Sequence record: OP168898.1
Length of the DNA: 64,000 nt
Direction: 5' to 3' (one strand)
DNA from: Escherichia phage ZCEC14
A model generated the notes under the pieces. It searched no databases, had not been told where the DNA came from, and was given only the letters and a program-made list of their open reading frames with translations. Below, in pieces: positions 1-64,000 of the stretch. A program made the position numbers and the translations under genes. Within the stretch, counting starts at the first letter, position 1; the number at the start of each line of letters is the position of its first letter.

Positions 1-1255
1 CAGGAATTCCAACCACAGTTTCACGCGGAGGAGAGCACAATACTAAGCAATCTTGACGAGCATCTCCGATTGAAACGACGTGTTTTTGGACAGTAGATGC
101 TGTTTCTAAAGATTCACCGGCACAAGAACCCGCAATAAACAACTGAACATCAACAGATTCGCGGTCAGCAAAGAAGTCCCAAGCTTCCATCAAATCTCCT
201 GCTGTTACTTCAGCATTTGATGATAATCCACCAGACAGAGTTAAAATTCCAGAGAAGCCTTCTGGCCAGTTTTGTGCAGTTGCAAAAATATATTCTGAAC
301 CACCTTTTGCGAAAAAGTCATCGATATAGATGTTACTATCGTAAATATCTTTTTCACCACGCTTAGTTGAAAGAACAACGCTTTGAACAATAGCATCATT
401 ACGACGAACTATAATAGCGTACTGTGAATCAGTTTGCGGTCCATATCCAAACACTGCTTTGGCAGTAGATGCACGAGTACCACCACCTGGATAAATTGGG
501 AGTAATGCAGAAGCTCCTTTTGCATAGTCAGCTTTAGATACGATTTCAATTTCAATTTTATCGCCTAATTCGCCTGGATAAAGAGCTACTACTCCTGGAA
601 TTCCGTATTTTTCGAGATTTGCTTGAAAGTCAACCGCTGTCATAGCAGCTTCAGCATTTTCAATTTCAGCTAATAAAATACCAGAATCAGTAATAATTTT
701 TCCAAGAGTTATTACTGCAGCTAAACCAGAGGAAGACGAAGAAATTTCCGCAGTCCAGTTAGAACCTAATTCCGGATATTCACCGACTTCTTTAGCTTTA
801 GCGATAATTTTTGCAGTAGGAATATTAATTTTCTTAATTTTTCCATCTGCGTCTACTTCAGTAATTTTACCTTCAGTTTCAATATCATCTGAAACATATT
901 TGACCGTGATTTTATCTCCAACCTCGTAGTTACTACCTGGGGTAGAAATTGTGTATTCAATATTACCAGCGATTGGTGATGAGTTTTTAGCGGTATCTCT
1001 ATCAACAGCACGAACTACTCGTAAGTCATTTCCGTACTGCAAGAAATTCATCGCAGACATAAAATAGTCAGCAGTTTCAGCGGTTGGTTGACCAAAAGTA
1101 TTAACTAAATCTACTTCATTTGTAACCTGTTTAATCTGAAAAGCAGGACCCCACTGGAATTTACCGGCCAAAGCTGCTGTACCAGTAGAGTTATTAACCA
1201 CGGTGCTTTGAACCGTAGTTTCTTTGAGCTCAATGCCCGGAGATAATAAAGTCAT
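1..1255 (-). CDS. 18: Tail sheath protein gp18, N-terminal ~418 codons (C-terminus lies beyond window start)
   Basis: Minus-strand frame open to window edge; ATG at 1253-1255 (revcomp) giving MTLLSPGIELK...; late-promoter motif TATAAATA just upstream; directly downstream of gene 17 as in T4. Confidence 0.85.
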   Translation of the reverse strand, partial: MTLLSPGIELKETTVQSTVVNNSTGTAALAGKFQWGPAFQIKQVTNEVDLVNTFGQPTAETADYFMSAMNFLQYGNDLRVVRAVDRDTAKNSSPIAGNIEYTISTPGSNYEVGDKITVKYVSDDIETEGKITEVDADGKIKKINIPTAKIIAKAKEVGEYPELGSNWTAEISSSSSGLAAVITLGKIITDSGILLAEIENAEAAMTAVDFQANLEKYGIPGVVALYPGELGDKIEIEIVSKADYAKGASALLPIYPGGGTRASTAKAVFGYGPQTDSQYAIIVRRNDAIVQSVVLSTKRGEKDIYDSNIYIDDFFAKGGSEYIFATAQNWPEGFSGILTLSGGLSSNAEVTAGDLMEAWDFFADRESVDVQLFIAGSCAGESLETASTVQKHVVSIGDARQDCLVLCSPPRETVVGIP

Positions 1256-1283
1256 TTTTAATCCTCTTTAATATGCTTTAATA

Positions 1284-4424
<3,141 letters not shown>

Positions 4425-4465
4425 GATTTCTCCTAATCTGGGCTTTAATTAGTTTATAATATTTA

Positions 4466-6167
<1,702 letters not shown>

Positions 6168-6179
6168 TTAAAATCCTTT

Positions 6180-6195
6180 GGGGCCTTGCGGCCCC
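6180..6195 (-). other. GC-rich stem-loop between wac and gene 13
   Basis: GGGGCC-GCAA-GGCCCC on the minus-strand transcript (GNRA tetraloop), no strong U tract. Confidence 0.4.
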
Positions 6196-6198
6196 ATG

Positions 6199-7656
6199 TT
6201 ATGCTGGTGATAAAAAGGTAGAAAGTAGTACCCATTCGCCGTCTTTACGAACGTAAGCTTGACCATCCTTTGGAGCTTCAGGAATATAACCTGCTTCTTG
6301 TAGAGCTTGAACGCTGCTCTGTAAAGAGGATATATTGTCTTTAGCTGTATTTACTTCATGTGTGACTGCCGCAATGTTAGTTTCATTCGTTTTTACAGAA
6401 TTAGTTAATCCTCGTTCTTCAACAGTTGATCCGTCAGGATTATTTCCATTTATAAGTGAAGTAAGTTCAATAACTTGACCTTTAATTCCTGTTCTATTAT
6501 TTCCTATTTCAACTTGTATATTTTGAACATTATTGTTTAAAACTGAAACTTCTCCTTCAAGCACTGAAACTTTATTTAATAGAGATCCAGAAGGAGACGG
6601 TTGTCCTCCGCTGGAGTCAGTTCCAACAATTTGATTTAACCACGAAACATTCGCTCTTAAACCAGACGAAGTGTTTTCACCAACAATTCCGTTTAAAGAC
6701 TCGATAGAAGTTGTGTGATTTTTAATTTTTCCTTTAATACTAGAAGGAATATCATCTGAACCTATAGAAGTTTCAATAGACGTTAAGCGCTGTTTAACAC
6801 CTTCACTCTGATTTAATTCATTATTAATAGCTTCAATGCTACTTTTGTTATTATTAATTTCTGTTATTATAGAAACATTTTCTGGGTATCCAATAGAAGA
6901 TTTAATTTCTGCTATATCAGAATTTATTAAAGTTTGTTTATCATCTATAGTGTTTAATCTATTATAAATATTTGGTCCAAAATCTACCGGTTTATTACCA
7001 AGTTCATCACGTAATTTACCAACTTCAACAGTCAATGATCCTACGTCAGATTCAGTAAATTTAGTTTCTAATTCGCTTAAACGAATGCCTTGTGAAGATA
7101 ATAACGTACTATTTGTTATTATTCTGTGTTTCATTCCTGTGCTAGCATTACCAACAACAGGAAGACCGTTAATGTCTTGACCAGAATATTGTCCTAATTC
7201 CTGTTTAATCCACAATAAATCATTTCTAATTGTTCTATAAACAGAGTTTTCTTCATCATTAAATGGACCTATATCAGCAATAATTTTGTCAACTGTATTA
7301 TTAGTTCCAGTTAATATATCAGTGTGTTCACTAGTAAGTGTCTTTAAATTTGATATGTCATTTTTATTAACACTGATCTGCGATAGCGCTTCTATATCTC
7401 CTGATACGTCTAAAACTCCTTGAATTGTTTTAATATCTTTCTGTGATGTTTCAATGGCAGTTTTAAGAATTCCCACATTTTCATCAAGAACTTCGACGTT
7501 TTTAAACACGGAAACAATTGGTCTATTCATTGATCCATCATTTCCATACTTAGTACTAGCTCCTAATATTTCTTCACCATTTTTAATCCATGAAATACGT
7601 TCCTGACCTTCGTCAGGAATGCTATCAACAAAAGGTAACTCTTTTAATTCAATCAT
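6199..7656 (-). CDS. wac: Fibritin (whisker antigen control), trimeric coiled coil with C-terminal foldon
   Basis: 485 aa; C-terminus [27 protein letters not shown] is the foldon motif; heptad-rich body. Confidence 0.9.
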
Positions 7657-7665
7657 TTGTAATCC

Positions 7666-9216
7666 TTAGTAATGAACTTTAATAATATAGTTTAATGATA
7701 TATTCCATGGTCTAGTTTCATAACCAATTAATCCTTCACGATTAAGTGTACCATGAGCATCTCTCGGTCCACCTAATTCAAATCCATCATTAGTGAAGTA
7801 TGAAGCATTATCCCAGTCGGAATATTTTCTAGTTCCAAGATATCCTTGATAAACTGACGCGCCAAATGGGCCTTCACTTCTGTTATATTCTCCCCAACCA
7901 CCGGCGTGTTTATGGTATGACATTTGTTGTGCCTGGACACCACCAACATGCATTCCGTCACATCCTACGCCAAGTCTATCCTTTCCATAACCATCTTGTC
8001 CTCGTTGATTTAAAATATGACCGCCTGTGCCGGCTCCTCTGACGAAAAGACCTCGCATATCAGGAATACCAGGATTATTCCAATCACCACCAAATCTTGT
8101 TCCAACTACGTTTCTATAATCAGGAAATTGGTCACCTGACACGGTTCCACCGTGACACATAGACCAACCTGGAGGTGCTGAATCACCTGCAAACATCATA
8201 ATAGTCCCAACTGGAATTCTTTCGGACGCATATCTTTCAGTGGCAACAGGTTGATCGCCATTTTTCCACATTCCGCCGCGCGACCAAATTCCATTTGCTG
8301 TGAGATGATCTAAATTTAAAGAACCATTAATAGTTTGTCCACCACGAGTATTAATTACATCTGCGTTCCAGGCTAATGCTCCAGAGCTATCACCTTCAGG
8401 AGCAATACCGGCCTGCGTCGTTAATTTTACTACCCCACGCATAGAACCGGTAGCTCCTCGACCATTTAGTGTTTCACCTGTTACTGCAACATCCCCCAAA
8501 TTATTATTAATTTCTGCTTGTGTTCCTAGACGTATAATACCCTTATATTCTTGTGTTGCAACAGAATTCATAAAGGTATACGGGGAAATTGCATATCCTT
8601 CGCGGAGAGTTCCTTGACGAGTTTGTGCAACAGTAGATAATTGAACTACTCCTCTCACCGATTCTGTTGCAGTGTCTTCTGAAGGAGCTATTTGTGAAAT
8701 TAATTTTATTGCAAGTTTTTGGGTTTTCAACGGAGTCATCGCCGTAGTATCATCGACACCAGCCAAAGCTGCAGGCGTAGATGATATTTTAATAACCCCG
8801 TTTGATGACTCAGATGAATATCTATTTCGGAACACATCATCAGTATGGTATTTCAGTTTTTGCGGCGTTATTGATGAATTATTATCTGAGCCTTCTAATG
8901 TTTCTTCATTTGTTGAATAGCGCGTTAAACCGTATTTAGTTTCAGTAGCATTTGGATACAATAATCTTGTTGCTAATGTAGCTGGTGTAACGATTTTAGA
9001 ATTATTTGTTCCATCTAAAACCTCTTGCTCTGATGCAATCATTGCTATTCCTTTAACTTCCATAGTTGCATCAGGAATACCATTTACGCCGATATTACTT
9101 ATTCTTGATAATGCAGACTGCACTGTCGTAACAGTGTCAGGAAAATTCGATCCAGTAGGATCGAATTTAACATATTTTGATTCATTTGATACGTGCTGAT
9201 ATGTATTGTTACTCAT
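7666..9216 (-). CDS. 12: Short tail fiber protein gp12
   Basis: 516 aa; N-terminus [13 protein letters not shown] and C-terminus [15 protein letters not shown] recognised as T4 gp12-like; synteny. Confidence 0.9.
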
Positions 9217-9872
9217 GCTATTCTCTCAAAATAATAAAATACTGTAGGTTGTGTGTGACTATCTAGCGTAACAGTTTGCGCACCTAATAATTGCCAAGTT
9301 CCGTACCCAGGTTTAGAAGGAGAAATTATTTCCTGTTTGAAAGTAATTCCTTTATCAGAGTATTGTTCTAAGATATGTTCTTGGTTATCTAAATACTTAA
9401 CTTGTATTTTATTTCCTATGGTAGGATGGTCTTCAAATGAATCAATTGCAATAAATTTTACAACCATTTCCTGTAGAGCTATTCTAACGGCACTAGTGAA
9501 TTCGATTGAAGTCATTCCATTAGTAGCTTTAACTGGAATACCAAACATGTTAACAATAACTGGATCACCTGGTTTGGCTGAAGTATCAGTAACGGTTCCT
9601 TCAAATGACCAATAGTCTGTTTGTTGCACGCCAGTAGGAGATACACCGCTTATATTAACTAATACAGCTCCAACCGGTTGCTCTGCCATATTTCTAACGT
9701 CATTGATAGCAGATTCTACATTTGAATCATAAAAACCTTTTGCTATTTGTGAAATTGTTACAGCGCCTACCGGCTGATTATTCATAACCGAAATATCATT
9801 TTTCTTAGTTCTAAAACCAAGAAAATCTGCTAAGCGGGAAATAACTCCCGCTTTATTATTAAGTAAACTCAT
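9213..9872 (-). CDS. 11: Baseplate wedge protein gp11 (short tail fiber attachment)
   Basis: 219 aa from internal Met (MSLLNNKAG...), matching T4 gp11 N-terminus; start overlaps stop of gene 10. Confidence 0.85.
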
Positions 9873-11677
9873 TATGCAATCCTTATCCAACGGTATACAG
9901 TAATAGACGGTTGAATATTACTAATATTAGTAGGAGGAGTATGTGAAGAGTTTGTTGTTGCGTAGTCTTCACGATATTTTGTATATATAGGACCAGTTTC
10001 GTCTGGGTCATATTGGCAACCTCCAATAATAACTGATCCATTTTCGTCTTCAATTAAAACTCTTTCATCGGTTTTAGTCGCAGGAAGATTTGCGTTTTCA
10101 AGCGTTACTGTTGTTGTACCAACTGTTCCACCGGCGGTATGTGAAGGATTTCCGCTAGAATCTAAATCATTATTGTTTAATGCAAAGTTTGGATCTGTAA
10201 CATCATCATTCCATCCTACTAAAACCTGCCCTTTACCAAATAATTTCCATGAACCAAATCCCATATAAGTCACCGGATTATTTGGGTTTATAGCATTTTC
10301 ATAAATTGAACCAACAGGATAAATGCTGTCGAAAATAGATGATATTGAATTATACGTTCTAGTATAAGAATCAACTTTTTCAACATTTGGCCAACCGATT
10401 TTATCAAAATCTGTTAAGGCTACATCACCAGTAACTTCAGTAGATGTTCCTTTACTAACATAACGGTCATCGGTTAATTCAATAATGTCATCTTTTTCTA
10501 AAAGAGTTCCTAAATCATTATTGAACCATGTTATAACGATTATATCTCCTGATTCAAATTTTCTATCAAATAAAAGACTGACAGGTTTTCCATCTTCATA
10601 TTCTATAGAATAATCTGTGTTTGATTCTTTCCATTCGCCACCAAGAGATATACATCCTGCTTGCGTATCTGAATTAGCGCCTTCACACAAAAACAGAGGA
10701 TATCCGGCTGTTCCAGCTTGTTGTTGTAAAATTCCATTAAAACGAACTTCAAGAGAATTAGGATTAATAGGTTCTCCGGGAATTAATCCAAATGCAGAGA
10801 ATGGAATTGATTTCATTGTTGATAAATCAGTAACGTAAATACTTCCTTCTAAAGAAGTTTTTGACGTTAATTTTGAATCTAATACTTTTATTTGGCGTCT
10901 TGTATATGAACTTCTCCATTGTGATATACCATCCATAAATGTTTCAATTTGAACAGTGTCACCAATATTACAAGGCTGTCTTAACCTAATATTAAATCCA
11001 TCAAGAGGAATCAATTCTCCTTCATTTTCCCCAGGAGAGCCAAAGTCACTGTTTTCACTAAATACATCGCCGTAATATAATTCATTACCACGGTGTTTTA
11101 CTCGGATGTTATTAACATTATAGCTAGTTCCACGGAAAACATCTAAAAAGTCTGTTTGTCCTTGAACTTCGACTAAAAATTCTTTACGTGCTACATTACT
11201 AATATCTGAACTAATAATTTTGTCAATTTGCTTGTTTTTGACATATTCCCAACGTCCTGGAGCACAATAAACGAGCTCTAAATCACTAAATTGAATATTA
11301 ATTTCAACTGACGATGACGACCCTTTAATTGTATCCCCAGAAGCAGCTACTAAAGTAACTGGATTAATGTTCCATGTTGCAAATACATCCCTAGCTCTAA
11401 TTACTTTATTATAATCATTAACAGTTCCTTTAGGAAGTTGTAAAGTTACTCTTCCAGAAGAGGTATTAATAGCGTATGATTTTCCCCACTTAGCTTTTAA
11501 TGTTTGACCGGATGAAGCATTATAAGTTTTCCAGGCACCGGCTGAATATGGAACATCTCCATCGCCAAGTTCATAATAAAGTTCATCAAAGTTTTCATTT
11601 ATTTTTATACCACCTTTACGCAGGTAGTCACCGGTACCATCATCAACAACATTACCGATATTAATATTTTGTTTCAT
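9872..11677 (-). CDS. 10: Baseplate wedge protein gp10
   Basis: 601 aa (T4 gp10 is about 602); synteny between 9 and 11. Confidence 0.85.
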
Positions 11678-26926: not shown

Positions 26927-26999
26927 TGGGAATTAGCCAAGTTGGTAAGGCACTGGATTTTGATTCCAGGATGCAAAGGTTCGAGTCCTTTATTCCCAG
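26927..26999 (+). tRNA. tRNA-Gln (anticodon UUG)
   Basis: Acceptor TGGGAAT/ATTCCCA, anticodon loop TTTTGAT, T-arm GGTTCGAGTCC. Confidence 0.85.
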
Positions 27000-27000
27000 C

Positions 27001-27087
27001 GCGAGAATGGTCAAATTGGTAAAGGCACAGCACTTAAAATGCTGCGGAATGATTTCCTTGTGGGTTCGAGTCCCACTTCTCGCACCA
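27001..27087 (+). tRNA. tRNA-Leu (anticodon UAA), class II with long variable arm, CCA encoded
   Basis: Acceptor GCGAGAA/TTCTCGC, anticodon loop CTTAAAA, T-arm GGTTCGAGTCC, 3' ACCA. Confidence 0.85.
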
Positions 27088-27092
27088 AATTT

Positions 27093-27166
<74 letters not shown>

Positions 27167-27176
27167 ATTTAATTTA

Positions 27177-27250
27177 CTCCGTGTAGCTCAGTTTGGTAGA
27201 GCGCCTGATTTGGGATCAGGAGGTCCAAGGTTCAAATCCTTGTATGGAGA
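27177..27250 (+). tRNA. tRNA-Pro (anticodon UGG)
   Basis: D-arm TAGCTCAGTTTGGTAGAGC, anticodon loop TTTGGGA, T-arm GGTTCAAATCC; no encoded CCA. Confidence 0.8.
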
Positions 27251-27252
27251 CT

Positions 27253-27342
27253 GGAGGCGTGGCAGAGTGGTTTAATGCACCGGTCTTGAAAACCGGCAGT
27301 CGCTCCGGCGACTCATAGGTTCAAATCCTATCGCCTCCGCCA
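27253..27342 (+). tRNA. tRNA-Ser (anticodon UGA), class II, CCA encoded
   Basis: Acceptor GGAGGCG/CGCCTCC, anticodon loop CTTGAAA, long variable arm, T-arm GGTTCAAATCC. Confidence 0.85.
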
Positions 27343-27347
27343 GTTTT

Positions 27348-27423
27348 GCTGATTTAGCTCAGTAGGTAGAGCAACTCACTTGTAATGAGAAGGTCGGCGG
27401 TTCGATTCCGTCAATCAGCACCA
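27348..27423 (+). tRNA. tRNA-Thr (anticodon UGU)
   Basis: Acceptor GCTGATT/AATCAGC, anticodon loop CTTGTAA, T-arm GGTTCGATTCC, 3' ACCA. Confidence 0.85.
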
Positions 27424-27424
27424 A

Positions 27425-27499
27425 GGCCCTGTAGCTGGAAGGTTCAAGCAAGCGACTCATAATCGCCAGATGGTGGTTCAATTCCACCCAGGGCCACCA
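27425..27499 (+). tRNA. tRNA-Ile (anticodon CAU, presumably lysidine-modified; tRNA-Met not excluded)
   Basis: Acceptor GGCCCTG/CAGGGCC, anticodon loop CTCATAA, T-arm GGTGGTTCAATTCCACC, 3' ACCA; position matches T4 tRNA-Ile. Confidence 0.7.
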
Positions 27500-27511
27500 A
27501 ATTATGAATTA

Positions 27512-27598
27512 GGGGAGTTATCCCGTAGAGGTAGCGGTGTGGACTGTAAATCCATTGTCATTGCGACTCGGGTGGTTCGACTCCATCACTCCCCACCA
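27512..27598 (+). tRNA. tRNA-Tyr (anticodon GUA), class II with long variable arm
   Basis: Acceptor GGGGAGT/ACTCCCC perfect 7 bp, anticodon loop CTGTAAA, variable stem GTC-ATTGC-GAC, T-arm GGTGGTTCGACTCCATC, 3' ACCA. Confidence 0.7.
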
Positions 27599-27602
27599 AT
27601 TT

Positions 27603-27677
27603 GGATGTGTAGCTCAATGGCAGAGCGATCGCCTGTTAAGCGATTGGTTATAGGTTCGAATCCTATCACGTCCGCCA
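27603..27677 (+). tRNA. tRNA-Asn (anticodon GUU)
   Basis: Acceptor GGATGTG/CACGTCC, D-arm GCTCAATGGCAGAGC, anticodon loop CTGTTAA, T-arm AGGTTCGAATCCT, 3' GCCA. Confidence 0.75.
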
Positions 27678-27681
27678 AATC

Positions 27682-27757
27682 CGAGGCATAGCTCAGAAGG
27701 AAGAGCAAGGACCTTCTAAGTCCTGGGTCGTAGGTTCGATCCCTACTGCCTCGACCA
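27682..27757 (+). tRNA. tRNA-Arg (anticodon UCU)
   Basis: Acceptor CGAGGCA/TGCCTCG, D-arm TAGCTCAGAAGGAAGAGC, anticodon loop CTTCTAA, T-arm GGTTCGATCCC, 3' ACCA. Confidence 0.85.
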
Positions 27758-34722: not shown

Positions 34723-34866
34723 ATAACATGGGAACAAGCTGGACCTCATGATTCTGTGAGGGATTCCCGCCAACCTGTAATAAGGTCGAGCCCAAGCGCG
34801 GTAATGGGTAAATACAGAAATGGACAATTCATGCGCCACGGAATGGCCCAAACTTAGAGAGAAGAA

Positions 34867-35406
34867 ATGAGAACATTTTTAACTGGTCCTTATCTATCCC
34901 TGATGAATGCTTTTACACACCATTCTGATGCTAGAGTAGAAGAAATTTGTAAAAACGAATATATCCCGCCATTTGAAGACTTACTTAAACAGTATTGCAC
35001 ACTTCGACTAGACGGTGGACGTCAATCCGGTAAATCAATTGCTGTGACTAACTTTGCTGCTAATTGGCTGTATGATGGCGGAACAGTTATTGTTCTTTCT
35101 AATACTTCAGCTTACGCTAAAATTTCTGCAAATAACATTAAAAAGGAATTTTCGCGTTATTCTAATGATGATATACGTTTTCGTTTATTTACTGATTCTG
35201 TACGCAGTTTTATTGGTAATAAAGGAAGCAAGTTCAGAGGTTTATCGCTTTCGCGAATTTTGTATATAATTGATGAGCCTGTCAAATCTCCTGATATGGA
35301 TAAGATTTATAGTGTCCATATTGACACTGTGCAACACTGCTGCAATAGTAAATGCTGCATTGGTGGTATTACTCGTCCGCAGTTTTTCGTAATCGGAATG
35401 CAATGA
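34867..35406 (+). CDS. Small P-loop NTPase-like protein (179 aa)
   Basis: Walker A-like GGRQSGKS and Walker B-like ILYIIDE; position corresponds to T4 vs.x ORFs. Confidence 0.5.
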   Translation: MRTFLTGPYLSLMNAFTHHSDARVEEICKNEYIPPFEDLLKQYCTLRLDGGRQSGKSIAVTNFAANWLYDGGTVIVLSNTSAYAKISANNIKKEFSRYSNDDIRFRLFTDSVRSFIGNKGSKFRGLSLSRILYIIDEPVKSPDMDKIYSVHIDTVQHCCNSKCCIGGITRPQFFVIGMQ

Positions 35407-35732
35407 TGACAGACACACAGCTTTTCGAATATCTTTATTTTTCGCCAAAAACTATTAAAAATAAATTGGTGAATCATTTTGAAATTTTGGCAAAAAATAA
35501 CATTTTAAGTGAATTTTATCCTAAGCAATACAAATTACAAAAAGGAGTATTCAAAGGATGCAGAGTTTTGTGTACTGCTCCTAATGCAAGATTAATGAAT
35601 AAAATTCCATATTTTACCATGGAATTTATTGATGGACCTTTTAAAGGATTAATTACCCAAAGTTTAATGGCATATGATTCTGAGCCATTTTTAATTAAAG
35701 AACAATCTTGGATAAATTTATTTTCTAATTGA
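35406..35732 (+). CDS. Hypothetical protein (108 aa)
   Basis: ATG 35406 overlapping stop of preceding ORF (TGATG); ORF-track start 35352 is further upstream. Confidence 0.5.
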
Positions 35733-35739
35733 GGTTTAT

Positions 35740-36102
35740 ATGAAAGCATATCAAATTCTTGAAGGCACACATAAAGGTACTATTTATTTTGAAGATGGTA
35801 TTCAAGCACGAATTATTGTCTCTAAAACCTTCAAAGAGGACTCTTTTGTAGATCCAGAAATTTTCTACGGTTTGCATGCCCGTGAAATTGAAATTGAGCC
35901 ACAACCTACAGTTAAAATTGAAGGTGGTCAACACTTGAACGTTAACGTTCTGCGTCGCGAAACTCTGGAAGATGCAGTTAAGCATCCGGAAAAATATCCG
36001 CAGCTGACCATCCGTGTATCCGGTTATGCAGTTCGCTTTAACTCTCTGACTCCGGAACAGCAGCGCGACGTTATCGCTCGTACCTTTACCGAGAGTTTGT
36101 AA
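35740..36102 (+). CDS. Autonomous glycyl radical cofactor, GrcA/YfiD-like (T4 Y06I-type)
   Basis: C-terminus [63 protein letters not shown] is the GrcA/PFL glycyl-radical motif (RVSGY); 3' half has host-like codons. Confidence 0.85.
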
Positions 36103-36323
36103 TGGCAAAGATAATTATTGAAGGTTCTGAAGATGTGCTAAATGCTTTCGCCGAGTGGTTTAGTAATTCAGGCGAACAGCAATTTAATGAAGCGTGGAAT
36201 ATGGGTGATATTGATGGAATTTATCCTACGACAGAAATTTCTGTTCAGGGATATGGCATTCATGAACCTATTCGTTTAGTTGAATATGATTTGGGAACGG
36301 GTGAGGAAGTAGAATATGATTGA
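36102..36323 (+). CDS. Hypothetical small acidic protein (73 aa)
   Basis: ATGG overlap with upstream stop; phage-like composition. Confidence 0.5.
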   Translation: MAKIIIEGSEDVLNAFAEWFSNSGEQQFNEAWNMGDIDGIYPTTEISVQGYGIHEPIRLVEYDLGTGEEVEYD

Positions 36324-36582
36324 AGATATTAAAGGTTATAAGCCGCACACTGAAGAGAAAATCGATAAAGTGAATGCTATCAAAGACGCTGAAGTTCGTT
36401 TAGGACTTATCTTTGACGCTTTATACGATGAATTCTGGGAAGCACTAGATAATTGTGAAGACTGCGAATTCGCGAAGAATTATGCTGAAAGCCTCGATCA
36501 GTTAACTATTGCTAAAACGAAACTCAAAGAAGCCAGTATGTGGGCTTGTCGTGCCGTGTTCCAACCAGAGGAAAAATACTAA
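36316..36582 (+). CDS. Hypothetical protein (88 aa)
   Basis: Overlapping start/stop chain typical of T4 early operons. Confidence 0.5.
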
Positions 36583-46774: not shown

Positions 46775-46875
46775 TTCATAAGAGGACTTCTATGACAAAA
46801 AGGCAGTTCAGAAATAGATTATATGGACTGCCATTAAAAAGATGACTAGAATTAAACTGGTGAATGGAGGTAGTG

Positions 46876-47178
46876 ATGTTATACTCAAAGGCTCGTGAAA
46901 TTTACGAAACTAAAATTAAAGAAGCAGTATTTCAGTTCGCAACGACAATGCGATGGACAAATGACTGGGAGTATTCAAAAAATCATAAGAAGCCCATGGT
47001 GACAAGAAAGGCTCATATGTTGGTGTTAATAGACCGTGAGCAGATTAAAGCCCGAGAAGCCCTCCAGAATCATAAAAAGGCTGCCTTTGAATGGTTTATG
47101 GATAACACTGCTCCTGAGACTAAGAAAGCAGTAAGCGCATGGTTCAGTGGAAAAAATTGTGAAAGAAGTTTCTTTTAG
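46876..47178 (+). CDS. Hypothetical protein (about 100 aa)
   Basis: ATG 46876 five nt after GGAGG; alternative ATG 46864. Confidence 0.5.
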   Translation: MLYSKAREIYETKIKEAVFQFATTMRWTNDWEYSKNHKKPMVTRKAHMLVLIDREQIKAREALQNHKKAAFEWFMDNTAPETKKAVSAWFSGKNCERSFF

Positions 47179-51269: not shown

Positions 51270-52199
51270 ATGAAAACTCGTAAACATTATATTGATTATT
51301 TTGATAGTCTTATTACTAAACACCGTAATTATCAGATTGGGCACAGAGCAGTAATCAATAATATTCTTCGTGATTTCTTTCAATATGTTGGCCAGGAAAA
51401 TCATATCTGTAAAGATACTCAAAACGCTTATTCTCATTCGTTAGGCAATTTGCTTGAATGGTTTAAACGTTCTCGTCTGTTATCTTCTACTGTAGCTAGT
51501 GATAACATTAAAAACTTTATGAAGCCGAGCTTCATTAAATCTGAGACATCTATAACCGATTTGGTTGAATTTACTATTGTTAACGATGTTAAAAAGACCC
51601 ATTTGGCTGATTGGTTATCTACCATTCCCGAAACTAAATTTGCTGATAAATTCGCTTGTCAATTCAATGACCAAGTGAATATGCTTTTTAAGCATGCTCG
51701 TAAACTATTTACCGCGGGCGATGACCGTACAAATACAGTTCATGTTAAGGATTGGGTTATTGCTGATGAAGTAACACACAAGCCAGGTGGTTCATCAGTA
51801 TTAATTAATATCCAGGTTCCTTATTATTACTCACGTAATCTCGGCACCATGACAGCTAGAGAAATTAATAAGCACAACAAAATTATTCGTTCGTTGTCTT
51901 ATAAACTCTGCACGATGGTGGAGATGATGGACGTAGTGGAAATGTATGACGAAACCGAAGATAATGGTTCAATGCTGTACAGTTCACGCATTCTAATTAA
52001 ACTGAAGAACCCTAATACATATAAGCAAGTTGTAAAAGAACCTAAAGTAGAAAAGGTTGATAACTTGAGCGAAGAACGTGAATATCTCAAATCTCGACTG
52101 GTTGAAGTTGAAGCCCAAATTGCAGAACACACCAAATTGTTAAAAGCTCTTAATGCAAAAGCAAATGGTTTACGTAATGCTATTGAGGTATTGAAATGA
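51270..52199 (+). CDS. Paralog family protein 4 with C-terminal coiled coil (309 aa)
   Basis: Similar N-terminal MKTRxxYIDxF and C-terminal coiled coil to 49136 ORF. Confidence 0.55.
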   Translation: MKTRKHYIDYFDSLITKHRNYQIGHRAVINNILRDFFQYVGQENHICKDTQNAYSHSLGNLLEWFKRSRLLSSTVASDNIKNFMKPSFIKSETSITDLVEFTIVNDVKKTHLADWLSTIPETKFADKFACQFNDQVNMLFKHARKLFTAGDDRTNTVHVKDWVIADEVTHKPGGSSVLINIQVPYYYSRNLGTMTAREINKHNKIIRSLSYKLCTMVEMMDVVEMYDETEDNGSMLYSSRILIKLKNPNTYKQVVKEPKVEKVDNLSEEREYLKSRLVEVEAQIAEHTKLLKALNAKANGLRNAIEVLK

Positions 52200-60859: not shown

Positions 60860-61031
60860 AATTAATGCAGGATTTACTGAATCTTTGAATGGTCATCTTT
60901 GCGTGAAAATTTCTGAAAAAGAATACCATGATAGTTCAATTAAAGAAGTTAATCCTCCTATTGTAAGAGCAGACCCTAATATGAAAGTGTGGGTTGATTC
61001 TTATCAAGTCAAAAAATGGTGGCAACTGTGA
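60825..61031 (+). CDS. Hypothetical protein (68 aa)
   Basis: ORF in chain. Confidence 0.45.
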   Translation: MMLTRVKFKRLKINAGFTESLNGHLCVKISEKEYHDSSIKEVNPPIVRADPNMKVWVDSYQVKKWWQL

Positions 61032-61034
61032 AAG

Positions 61035-61208
61035 ATGAACACCCAGACTTCTGAAATAGATTATAATAAAATTCGTTCCTCTAAAGTAGAAATGATGAGA
61101 CGCTTTAAAGAGTCTCATGATAAAGCTAAAGCAGAAGGAACTATAACATATAAGCGTATAAAATTTAGAAGCTCTAATGAGCCTCTGTATGGCGTATTAT
61201 GCGGATAG
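61035..61208 (+). CDS. Hypothetical small protein (57 aa)
   Basis: ATG 61035; below ORF-track cutoff. Confidence 0.4.
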   Translation: MNTQTSEIDYNKIRSSKVEMMRRFKESHDKAKAEGTITYKRIKFRSSNEPLYGVLCG

Positions 61209-61274
61209 GAGCTTCGGCTCCTATATTGCTTTATAAATTTTTGGTAAAATAAACCAAAACAATGAGGATATTAA

Positions 61275-62477
61275 ATGAAAGTATGTATTTTTATGGCTCG
61301 AGGTCTTGAAGGTTGCGGTGTAACTAAATTTTCTCTTGAGCAACGTGATTGGTTTATTAAAAATGGTCATGAAGTAACTTTGGTTTATGCTAAAGATAAA
61401 TCATTTACTCGTAATTGCGCACATGATTATAAGTCATTTTCAATTCCGGTTTTATTGGCAAAAGAATACGATAAAACACTTAAACTGGTAAATGATTGCG
61501 ATATTTTAATTATCAATTCAGTTCCTGCTACTTCAGTAGAAGAAGACACCATTAATAACTATAAAAAAATTATTGATAACATTAAACCTTCGGTTCGTGT
61601 TGTAGTTTATCAGCATGACCATTCTTCTCTTTCTTTGCGTCGAAATTTGGGATTAGAAGAAACTGTTCGTCGAGCTGATGTTATTTTTAGCCATTCTGAT
61701 AATGGTGACTTTAATAAAGTTTTGATGAAAGAATGGTATCCGGAAACTGTTTCTCTGTTTGATGATATTGAAGAAGCACCGACCGTATATAACTTTCAGC
61801 CTCCTATGGATATTGCGAAGGTTCGATCAACCTACTGGAAAGATGTTTCTGAAATTAACATGAATATCAACCGTTGGATTGGTCGTACTACTACATGGAA
61901 AGGCTTTTATCAGATGTTTGATTTTCATGAAAAACATCTTAAACCTGCAGGACTAAGTACTATTATGGAAGGTCTGGAACGTTCTCCAGCATTCATTCCT
62001 ATTAAAGAAAAAGGAATTCCATACGAGTATTATCGTCTTCATCAAGTAGACCAAATTAAAATTGCTCCTAATTTGCCAACGCAAATTCTCGACCGTTATG
62101 TAAATAGCGAAATGCTTGAACGCATGAGTAAATCCGGATTTGGTTATCAGCTGAGTAAGTTGGACAAAAAATATCTACAGCGTTCTTTAGAATACACTCA
62201 TCTCGAGCTTGGTGCATGTGGAACAATTCCAGTATTTTGGAAATCTACTGGCGAAAATTTAAAATTCCGTGTTGATAATACTCCATTAATTTCACATGAT
62301 AGCGGTATCGTTTGGTTTGATGAAAATGACATGGAATCAACATTTGAACGTATTAAAGAACTGTCATCTGACCGAGCTCTTTATGATCGCGAACGCGAAA
62401 AAGCTTATGAATTTTTGTATCAGCATCAAGATTCAAGCTTCTGCTTTAAAGAACAGTTTGACATTATTACAAAATAA
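61275..62477 (+). CDS. a-gt: DNA alpha-glucosyltransferase (glucosylates hydroxymethylcytosine)
   Basis: 400 aa as T4 AGT; MKVCIFMARGLEGCGVTKFSLEQRDWFIKNGHEVTLVYAKDKSF recognised. Confidence 0.9.
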   Translation: MKVCIFMARGLEGCGVTKFSLEQRDWFIKNGHEVTLVYAKDKSFTRNCAHDYKSFSIPVLLAKEYDKTLKLVNDCDILIINSVPATSVEEDTINNYKKIIDNIKPSVRVVVYQHDHSSLSLRRNLGLEETVRRADVIFSHSDNGDFNKVLMKEWYPETVSLFDDIEEAPTVYNFQPPMDIAKVRSTYWKDVSEINMNINRWIGRTTTWKGFYQMFDFHEKHLKPAGLSTIMEGLERSPAFIPIKEKGIPYEYYRLHQVDQIKIAPNLPTQILDRYVNSEMLERMSKSGFGYQLSKLDKKYLQRSLEYTHLELGACGTIPVFWKSTGENLKFRVDNTPLISHDSGIVWFDENDMESTFERIKELSSDRALYDREREKAYEFLYQHQDSSFCFKEQFDIITK

Positions 62478-62494
62478 AGGGCTTCGGCCCTTTA
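62476..62494 (+). terminator. Stem-loop / probable terminator
   Basis: AAAGGGC-TTCG-GCCCTTT hairpin; short U tract. Confidence 0.55.
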
Positions 62495-62516
62495 GCTTTA
62501 TACGGAGTTTGATATA

Positions 62517-62657
62517 ATGATATTTCTTGGATATGTGATACTTTTTCTAGCGTTTTATCTATTCACTAGAGCATGTTGGATTGGATTCTTTAGTACTCCA
62601 GATGGATTTATTTCAATAATTTTATTTTGCATTTCAATGACGGTTCTTGATATATGA
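62517..62657 (+). CDS. Small hydrophobic membrane peptide (46 aa)
   Basis: MIFLGYVILFLAFYLF... two TM stretches; ATGA overlap with gene 47 start. Confidence 0.4.
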   Translation: MIFLGYVILFLAFYLFTRACWIGFFSTPDGFISIILFCISMTVLDI

Positions 62658-63673
62658 AAATTTTAAATTTAGGTGATTGGCATTTAGGTGTTAAAGCCGA
62701 TGATGAGTGGGTTCAATCCATTCAGTTGGATGGAATTAAACAAGCAATAGAATATTCTAAGAAAAATGGAATTACTACATGGATTCAATATGGCGATATT
62801 TTTGATGTGCGAAAAGCAATCACACATAAAACTATGGAGTTCGCTCGTGAAATAGTTCAAATGCTTGATGATGCTGGTATTACCCTACATACTGTTGTAG
62901 GAAACCATGATATGCACTTTAAAAATACTTTAACTCCAAATGCTTCTACTGAACTTTTGGCTAAATATCCTAATGTTAAAGTATATGATAAGCCTACTAC
63001 AGTAGATTTTGACGGATGTTTGATTGATTTAATTCCTTGGATGTGTGAAGAAAATACTGGTGAAATTCTTGAACACATCAAAACTTCATCTGCTTCTTTT
63101 TGTGTTGGCCACTGGGAGCTGAATGGATTTTATTTTTATAAAGGAATGAAATCTCACGGTCTTGAACCCGATTTCCTTAAGACTTATAAAGAGGTGTGGT
63201 CTGGTCACTTCCATACTATCTCTGAGGCTGCTAACGTCAGATATATTGGGACACCATGGACACTAACTGCAGGTGACGAGAATGACCCTCGTGGGTTCTG
63301 GATGTTTGATACAGAAACAGAACGAATGGAATTTATTCCAAACAATACTACCTGGCATCGTAGAATTCATTATCCATTTAAAGGAAAAATTGACTATAAA
63401 GATTTTACAAATCTATCAGTACGTGTTATAGTAACTGAAGTAGACAAAAATCTGACGAAGTTCGAATCTGAACTAGAAAAAGTTGTGCATTCATTACGAG
63501 TTGTGTCAAAGATTGATAACTCTGTCGAGTCAGATGACAGTGAAGAAGTTGAAGTTCAATCGCTTCAGACGTTGATGGAAGAATACATTAATGCAATTCC
63601 AGACATCACTGATTCTGATCGTGAAGCACTTATTCAATATGCAAATCAGCTATATGTAGAGGCAACACAATGA
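62654..63673 (+). CDS. 47: Recombination endonuclease subunit gp47 (Mre11-like phosphoesterase)
   Basis: 339 aa as T4 gp47; phosphoesterase motifs LGDWHLG, GDIFD, GNHD. Confidence 0.9.
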   Translation: MKILNLGDWHLGVKADDEWVQSIQLDGIKQAIEYSKKNGITTWIQYGDIFDVRKAITHKTMEFAREIVQMLDDAGITLHTVVGNHDMHFKNTLTPNASTELLAKYPNVKVYDKPTTVDFDGCLIDLIPWMCEENTGEILEHIKTSSASFCVGHWELNGFYFYKGMKSHGLEPDFLKTYKEVWSGHFHTISEAANVRYIGTPWTLTAGDENDPRGFWMFDTETERMEFIPNNTTWHRRIHYPFKGKIDYKDFTNLSVRVIVTEVDKNLTKFESELEKVVHSLRVVSKIDNSVESDDSEEVEVQSLQTLMEEYINAIPDITDSDREALIQYANQLYVEATQ

Positions 63674-63933
63674 CTTTTGATGAATTTAAAAATGTTATGA
63701 TGAGTCAGCATTTTGAATGCGAAGTGAAAGATGATATTGGGCATAAAGAAATTATTGAATATTGGTTTGAACCGCTAGAGGTTGAAGATAATCGTATTAA
63801 AAAGGTTACGGTCTGCACTGATTGGGCCGTATCTTTTAACTTCAACATTTTAGATAATGACACACCTAAATCATTACAAGATATGGCTGTATCTTGTATT
63901 AAGGATGCATACTGTGAAGTTTTCGACATTTGA
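63670..63933 (+). CDS. Hypothetical acidic protein (87 aa)
   Basis: ATGA overlap with gene 47 stop. Confidence 0.5.
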   Translation: MTFDEFKNVMMSQHFECEVKDDIGHKEIIEYWFEPLEVEDNRIKKVTVCTDWAVSFNFNILDNDTPKSLQDMAVSCIKDAYCEVFDI

Positions 63934-64000
63934 CATTAACGATGAATTCATAGCAAATATTGATTACACCGAAGAAGATTCTAGATATGTTGGAATAATT
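63905..64000 (+). CDS. Hypothetical ORF, 5' part only (runs off window end)
   Basis: ATG 63905 opens a frame (MHTVKFSTFDINDEF...) still open at 64000; identity not established. Confidence 0.3.
   Translation, partial: MHTVKFSTFDINDEFIANIDYTEEDSRYVGII

Follow-up and report, generated by a model that had tools for sequence, protein, structure and literature searches.

Bacteriophage T4 serves as the standard textbook case of a phage with essentially no DNA in common with its host, whose chromosome it destroys. Its gene vs.6 raises the question of how a tract of approximately 172 nucleotides (nt), indistinguishable from an Escherichia coli allele of the metabolic gene grcA, came to be present in the genomes of T4 and of 632 phage records in all. 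Here, we describe a computational analysis of the vs.6 gene of Escherichia phage ZCEC14 (OP168898.1), a T4-type phage of the genus Tequatrovirus. The window, by which we mean the whole stretch of DNA that was analysed, is a 64,000-nt segment of this genome, and vs.6 lies at 35740-36102. We present evidence that the 5' part of the gene, its head, is in all likelihood an old phage sequence that has drifted to phage composition, and that approximately 172 nt of the 3' part were recently replaced by recombination with chromosomal grcA, a replacement that has recurred across phage lineages. The parts of the gene are as follows:

35740-36102, plus strand: the complete open reading frame (ORF) of 120 amino acids, the vs.6/Y06I ortholog and a phage grcA (autonomous glycyl-radical cofactor), assigned by PF01228, the structure 6OWR, PHROG 1209 and synteny.
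35740-35917, plus strand: the phage-type 5' half (amino acids 1-59 and the first base of codon 60), an AT-rich and diverged form of GrcA's disordered N-terminal region, delimited by GC content at third codon positions (GC3), blastn and hhalign.
35918-36089, plus strand: the host-derived patch of 172 nt, identical to nt 200-371 of E. coli grcA except for the T at 35935, delimited by blastn, codon alignment and a break-point scan.
36022-36024, plus strand: the GGT codon of Gly95 in the motif RVSGYAV, aligned with the radical glycine of GrcA and Gly734 of pyruvate formate-lyase (PFL); the radical role is taken from PMC8683613.
36090-36102, plus strand: the last base of an ACC codon, the codons GAG AGT TTG and the stop, with phage-type synonymous states at 36090, 36093, 36096 and 36097.

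A first-pass annotation, made from the letters of the window, had described this ORF as a GrcA-like glycyl-radical gene homologous to T4 Y06I, with approximately 60 C-terminal residues almost the same as those of E. coli GrcA. All three descriptions agree with our comparisons. The ORF scores 66.8 bits against the Pfam family PF01228 (Gly_radical; cut-off 22.2), matches PHROG 1209 along its full length and, by phmmer, aligns residues 22-120 with residues 28-127 of the nuclear magnetic resonance structure of E. coli YfiD/GrcA (6OWR) at E = 8.6e-42, and its tail aligns with PFL residues 697-759 (E = 5e-26). The product is a small stand-alone protein (approximately 14 kDa) that lacks the catalytic barrel of PFL. 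The last 60 residues (EGGQHLNV...TESL), including the RVSGYAV radical loop, are fully identical to those of E. coli GrcA (YfiD), and the N-terminal half is homologous to the PFL-binding region. The window protein differs from bacterial GrcA in being 7 amino acids shorter, in having a head of approximately 28% identity in profile alignment and in scoring below the equivalog cut-off of the bacterial family. T4 vs.6 occupies the same place, between the vs.7 stop and the vs.5 start, and its product differs from that of the window at one of 120 residues (H73 in T4, R73 in the window). The surrounding gene order, ipIII-ipII-denV-vs.8-vs.7-vs.6-vs.5-vs.4-vs.3-regB-vs.1-vs-tk.4, is that of T4, as compared with the annotations of T4 and phage BW-1. 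The stretch 35340-36400 is 95-97% identical to hundreds of Tequatrovirus genomes, and the vs.6 region is 95-99% identical to 482 phage records, mostly Escherichia and Shigella T4-type phages.

Comparison by blastn with 5,426 complete E. coli genomes divided the gene in two. Gene nt 179-363 (35918-36102) matched the 3' 185 nt of grcA at 96.2-97.3% identity in all 5,426 genomes, and the 5' half had no blastn match in any of them; in a global alignment the head is 45% identical to E. coli grcA at the nucleotide level. A maximum chi-square scan placed the break point at 35918, with 45% identity to its left and 97% to its right. Within 35918-36089 the codon alignment contains a single mismatch, at 35935, where the phage has TTG and E. 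coli CTG, followed by an exact run of 154 nt (35936-36089). The last four codons hold four synonymous mismatches, of the six mismatches in the whole tail. The codons of the patch that vary synonymously are the same as in E. coli at 55 of 57 positions, compared with 30 of 58 in Slopekvirus and Pseudotevenvirus, which encode the same peptide (binomial P = 7e-14). Because this identity to grcA, at nucleotides and at synonymous codons, lies far above what protein conservation needs, we conclude that the 3' half is host-derived, as the annotation had supposed.

The base composition of the gene changes at the same place. GC content is 0.494 in the patch and 0.345 in the head, and GC3 is 0.448 compared with 0.203. 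Among 1,335 windows of 58 codons drawn from the other ORFs of the window, GC3 averages 0.231 (standard deviation 0.068), and only 0.45% of these background windows reach the value of the patch. Leucine is encoded by CTG at four of five positions in the patch, compared with 6% phage-wide, and proline by CCG at all three, compared with 14%. The BLAST search and the GC and codon comparison that the annotation had suggested thus both bear out a host-like 3' part, enriched in GC3, CTG and CCG; the annotated limits of that part, 35935-36102, do require correction, since it starts 17 nt further to the left, at 35918, and host identity ends at 36089. A megablast search of the remainder of the window covered 11000-35910 and 36095-61000 (approximately 50 kb, with 1-10999 and 61001-64000 outside the search) and gave no other match to any E. 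coli chromosome.

Is the head, then, a foreign sequence to which a piece of host DNA was attached, or is it part of the same gene? When one profile was built from 43 distinct phage N-terminal halves and another from 68 distinct N-terminal halves of bacterial GrcA, the two aligned over their entire length (hhalign, probability 98.4%, E = 1.1e-14, 60 columns). Because this head profile and the phmmer alignment both match the N-terminal region of GrcA, the whole ORF is a grcA homolog. The same short variable head and PFL-type tail characterise phage GrcA homologs generally, which belong to PHROG 1209, are present in 1,591 phage records and extend to T5-like, jumbo Asteriusvirus, Aeromonas and other T4-like phages. 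Most of these homologs differ from vs.6 of the window in that their tails are written in phage codons and their host-identical runs are of 38 nt or fewer. This holds for the two-part proteins of Slopekvirus, Pseudotevenvirus, the L103-L107 group, Krischvirus and the T5-like, jumbo and Aeromonas phages, and in Slopekvirus and Pseudotevenvirus the 58-residue peptide is identical to that of the patch. In 45 other phage homologs, exact in-register matching to the best of 82 host genes extends over at most 17-38 nt; in most Tequatroviruses and Mosigviruses it reaches 107-154 nt, and in the more diverged JK45 and L100 it reaches 56 and 71 nt. Host-type patches are confined to Tequatrovirus and Mosigvirus, Jiaodavirus, some Slopekviruses and one oral-metagenome clade. 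The unpatched genera probably display the appearance of the gene before conversion.

The ends of the tract lead to the same reading. The final codons GAG and AGT are common to Mosigvirus, Slopekvirus and Pseudotevenvirus, the mosaic differing among the Tequatroviruses, and because the last four codons are phage-type, the patch lies inside a pre-existing phage grcA. Phage-type sequence of one and the same gene thus adjoins the segment of host identity at either end, and the compositional shift coincides with this segment. On the left the tract ends where the peptide diverges (KI versus RV before EGGQH), and on the right it ends approximately 10 nt before the stop, so that it fills the whole interval over which phage and host DNA are similar (approximately 75-83% before conversion). 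When E. coli grcA was compared with 50,697 phage records, it was never aligned upstream of nt 199/200 and never past the end of the gene. Homologous (at first homeologous) recombination is expected to leave a tract that is confined to the region of homology, and the tract in vs.6 fits such an origin.

The donor of the patch can be approached through its identity to the grcA genes of individual enterobacteria, which is 98.8% for E. coli, 97.1% for a cryptic Escherichia sp., 90.6% for Citrobacter, 88.3% for Klebsiella pneumoniae and 81.3% for Salmonella. These values identify E. coli or a very close relative as the donor. Three Tequatrovirus records (BW-1, L099 and L102) are 100% identical to the allele of E. 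coli SK1144 over gene nt 179-353. Between bacterial species the two parts of grcA diverge equally: the heads of E. coli and K. pneumoniae are 84.8% identical and their tails 88.7%, and for E. coli and Salmonella the values are 84.3% and 83.9%. The bacterial gene is therefore vertically inherited. Because of this vertical inheritance, and because the phage tail is in host codon usage, the direction of transfer was from host to phage.

Jiaodavirus, a genus of T4-like phages of Klebsiella and Raoultella, presents the same arrangement with another donor. In this genus GC3 is 0.59-0.62 in the tail and 0.20-0.26 in the head, and the head, at 71-72% nucleotide identity, is an ortholog of its T4 counterpart. 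The tail is 97.1% identical to K. pneumoniae grcA over a 173-nt blastn match, compared with 88.6% for E. coli and 92% for K. aerogenes, and encodes the Klebsiella-type residues LLDAVE. The patch itself spans 158 nt (gene nt 181-338) at approximately 98-99% identity to K. pneumoniae grcA, with one mismatch in L122 and three in PSE-D1; the members that carry it include L005, L006, L122, L179 and L180. The patches of the window and of Jiaodavirus are 86.5-88.3% identical to each other, which equals the value between E. coli and K. pneumoniae (88.3%). Since two sister phage lineages each carry the allele of their own host, at least two host-to-phage events are required, and they were independent and had different donors, E. 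coli for Tequatrovirus and Mosigvirus and K. pneumoniae for Jiaodavirus.

The K. pneumoniae match depended on the host sequences available for comparison. The initial host set, drawn from a scan of genome contigs with E. coli GrcA, comprised 80 species, K. pneumoniae not among them, and with this set the best host match of Jiaodavirus was only 162-167 of 186 positions. The K. pneumoniae grcA was taken from a chromosome filed as a plasmid in PLSDB. This database contains several complete chromosomes filed in this way (L177/CP125156.1; K. pneumoniae, 5.37 Mb; E. coli, 4.8-4.9 Mb; Proteus, 4.1 Mb), which are a trap for plasmid statistics.

Shorter host-type patches are present in some Slopekviruses (Klebsiella/Raoultella-type) and in one oral-metagenome clade (Haemophilus-type). 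Of the 12 sites that distinguish the Slopekvirus record L114 from phage 150040, nine fall within nt 228-249, a clustering reached in none of 200,000 random placements; the changes within nt 228-249 recreate the Raoultella/Klebsiella sequence and include a codon change from GAA to CTG. In the oral-metagenome phage L117, 14 of the 15 informative sites within tail nt 101-182 are in the Haemophilus state, compared with two of the 26 that precede them. A further candidate, the IMG/VR contig L125 with an apparent Yersinia-type patch (170 of 186 positions), was rejected as a genuine bacterial grcA with the N-terminus MITGIQITK.

The patch does not always agree with the host under which a phage is filed. 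PSE-D1, which has a Klebsiella patch, is filed as a Salmonella phage. The protein encoded by phages under the labels Yersinia, Hafnia, Proteus and Pseudomonas is 98-100% identical to that of the window, and the E. coli-type patch was seen directly in the DNA of Yersinia fPS-90/PST and Proteus Isf-Pm2. The patch may therefore be more telling of host history than the host label of a record.

Four other explanations of the mosaic have to be weighed against conversion within an older phage gene, and the most substantial of them is the one that the annotation had put forward, namely that a fragment of host grcA was joined in frame, by illegitimate recombination, to an unrelated phage ORF. The sharp break in composition and identity at 35918 and a head without nucleotide similarity to E. 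coli are what such a chimera would display. The host origin of the 3' part survives from that proposal and the fusion does not, since the head is a diverged form of the GrcA N-terminus, alignable over its full length with its bacterial counterparts, and the host sequence is an internal patch, which stops short of the last four codons and never reaches the DNA flanking the host gene; moreover, phage genera that have no patch share the architecture and the tail peptide in phage codons. We therefore regard fusion as improbable. Still less probable is a single acquisition of the whole E. coli grcA followed by unequal decay, in which a disordered head drifted and a tail under purifying selection did not. 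The tail peptide is indeed nearly invariant in all phages and bacteria, and the head, which is disordered in YfiD, evolves rapidly, but selection on the protein does not hold synonymous sites at the level seen in the patch relative to Slopekvirus and Pseudotevenvirus, nor does it maintain a GC3 of 0.45 in the tail beside 0.20 in the head of one gene. Jiaodavirus tails, furthermore, match K. pneumoniae rather than E. coli even though their heads are orthologous to that of T4.

Identity by itself gives no direction, and the 3' end of bacterial grcA could in principle have been received from a phage. This reversal has very little to recommend it, as the tail is in host and not phage codon usage, host heads and tails diverge equally with tail identities that follow enterobacterial relationships, and all 5,426 E. 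coli genomes have grcA at a conserved ung-grcA-eamB locus. Least credible of all is an artefact of host-read contamination or chimeric assembly, which would have had to create one and the same in-frame junction in each of 632 phage genomes that were sequenced independently, RB69 and the T4 reference among them, together with phage-specific variants inside the patch such as the TTG at 35935. Conversion of an older phage grcA by the host gene thus accounts best for the data.

Several observations nevertheless weigh against this interpretation or against its recurrent form. The E. coli-type patch is present in those 632 records at 95-99% identity, and all 632 genomes have the same 5' boundary (grcA nt 199/200), a shared boundary that fits one ancestral event with subsequent spread from phage to phage as well as it fits repeated events. 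At grcA nt 240, E. coli and the phages share a synonymous C/T polymorphism; it is a single transition site, and the coincidence could be due to chance. Between Tequatrovirus and Mosigvirus, synonymous codon differences number 5 of 58 in the patch and 12 of 51 in the head, a contrast that is only marginally significant (Fisher P = 0.04). Taken together, the polymorphism and the low divergence of the patch are compatible with repeated refreshing from the host and do not prove it. No phage record contains a Salmonella-type patch (maximum identity 83.8%), and Krischvirus, T5-like and jumbo phages of E. coli have no patch, so that the infecting host is not sufficient for a patch to arise. The window protein scores 153.3 bits against the NCBIfam GrcA equivalog (TIGR04365, IPR011140), below the cut-off of 170, because its head is diverged. 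The mechanism of recombination is, in addition, only proposed, and exchange with the chromosome is expected to be rare because T4 degrades host DNA and contains hydroxymethylcytosine in its own.

What would the protein do, and how might the exchange occur? The patch encodes the structured glycyl-radical domain (amino acids 60-117, corresponding to YfiD 67-124, with the radical residue Gly95) almost exactly, and the unconverted head corresponds to the disordered part. Residues 61-127 of YfiD duplicate the glycyl-radical domain of PFL (residues 693-759), and the disordered residues 1-60 aid binding to cleaved PFL and activation. According to Wagner et al. (2001), as represented in PMC8683613, the PFL activase introduces a glycyl radical into T4 Y06I, as it does into YfiD, and each of the two proteins restores the activity of PFL that has been cleaved by oxygen. 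By analogy with Y06I, the window protein would be expected to act in the same manner: the host activase PflA would install the radical on a 14-kDa spare part, the C-terminal domain of which would substitute for the piece that PFL loses to oxygen cleavage, and the conversion of pyruvate to acetyl-CoA and formate would thereby be kept running in the infected cell. For such a function the structured domain must fit the PFL and the activase of the host.

We propose that, in the infected cell, pieces of host chromosomal DNA or an invading 3' end of phage DNA would pair at the conserved tail, and that T4 recombination or repair synthesis would copy host sequence into vs.6 by gene conversion or double crossover, probably through UvsX-dependent strand invasion or repair synthesis on fragments of host DNA. 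By raising identity, a first host-identical tract would make later exchanges far easier. Selection for a match to host PFL and activase may contribute, although the data do not need it. An extension of this proposal, which we advance tentatively and consider a little less likely than its opposite, is that phage grcA is in concerted evolution with host grcA through ongoing, self-reinforcing gene conversion. If so, each infection would offer approximately 170 bp of perfect homology, and the tract would be refreshed continually and re-written after a host shift, with the spare part kept matched to the PFL and activase of the current host. The patch would then also constitute a host-species barcode for assigning hosts to strictly lytic T4-type phages, as well as a natural and quantifiable reporter of DNA flow from chromosome to lytic phage.

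The closest analogue of the vs.6 mosaic appears to be the mosaicism of cyanophage psbA. Sullivan et al. (2006, PMC1484495) describe recombination between host and phage within the cyanophage genes psbA and psbD. In these metabolic genes host-like segments stand next to phage-like ones, and exchange is recurrent and tracks host group; vs.6 of the window is likewise a host-derived metabolic copy with a host-like segment beside phage-like ones. Unlike the cyanophages, ZCEC14 is an enterobacterial T4-like phage that destroys the host chromosome, and its gene is a spare part of 363 nt. Also unlike psbA and psbD, the tract in vs.6 comprises exactly one structural domain and is up to 100% identical to a present-day host allele over 175 nt. 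We found no description of a nucleotide-level mosaic in vs.6, or of its host-specific recurrence, in the searchable literature, and an earlier mention of the identity between T4 and E. coli is possible. The gene and its biochemistry were already known; what is new concerns the evolution of the gene and not its function.

These results indicate that these strictly lytic phages do undergo homologous exchange with the chromosome of their host, repeatedly and at one short gene, and that the limits of homology set its extent. A watermarked host grcA would provide a simple system in which to measure recombination from host to lytic phage and its genetic requirements, and the patch may record the host history of both cultured and uncultured T4-like phages. 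There is also a practical consequence. In a 2026 study (PMC12845203), grcA was selected as the core-gene marker for quantitative PCR of Straboviridae coliphages, and primers that anneal within the 3' 172 nt would amplify the chromosomal grcA of E. coli as well, which they would match at 97-100%.

Translation signals stand at both ends of the gene. The upstream signal was read from the letters of the window:

35731-35734, plus strand: a putative Shine-Dalgarno-like GAGG, 5 nt before the ATG of vs.6, overlapping the vs.7 stop (TGA 35730-35732).

At the other end, the vs.5 ATG (36102-36104) overlaps the vs.6 stop in the sequence TAATG, and GAGAG (36091-36095), formed by the phage-type codons GAG AGT, lies 6 nt before that ATG as a possible Shine-Dalgarno site for vs.5. 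A role of GAGAG in ribosome binding for vs.5 could explain why the last codons of vs.6 resist conversion. T4 itself has GAAAGT where the window has GAGAGT, and any constraint on these codons is hence not absolute.

Elsewhere among phages, a grcA homolog lies directly beside nrdD and nrdG in Aeromonas phage AsFcp_4 (L015, 601-984) and in the Escherichia jumbo phage UE-S1 (L012, 598-957). Class III ribonucleotide reductase uses formate, the product of PFL, as its reductant; because of this connection, a functional link of grcA to nrdD and nrdG is suggested, and a role of grcA in the anaerobic supply of deoxynucleoside triphosphates is plausible. In Morganella phage vB_Mm5 (L010, 337-990) the homolog is annotated at 217 amino acids, with an N-terminal extension of approximately 90 amino acids that has no counterpart in the other phages compared and may be either an annotation artefact or a real fusion.

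Three further features of the window deserve mention. In the approximately 50 kb searched by megablast, the sole other match to E. coli records was between phage tRNA genes and plasmids that are probably phage-plasmids: a cluster of ten tRNA genes occupies 26927-27757, and its Tyr-Asn part, especially 27509-27663, is 84-91% identical to plasmid tRNA-Tyr/Thr genes in approximately 255 E. coli genomes. The ORFs 46864-47178 and 51270-52199 (DUF7203 and no Pfam match, respectively) contain 58-codon windows with a GC3 of 0.45-0.50, as high as that of the patch; neither has a megablast match to any E. coli genome, and their high GC3 must therefore have a cause other than that in grcA. Finally, 34723-34866, between denV and the ATG at 34867, reaches a GC content of 50% and is apparently non-coding. 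It was considered as an RNA gene and rejected, having no tRNA or Rfam match and ordinary folding. It corresponds, at 96% identity, to the 5' part of T4 vs.8 (ORF 64.0, 219 amino acids); the vs.8 frame starts later in the window (179 amino acids), and there may be a frameshift, or a different start, in the upstream part.

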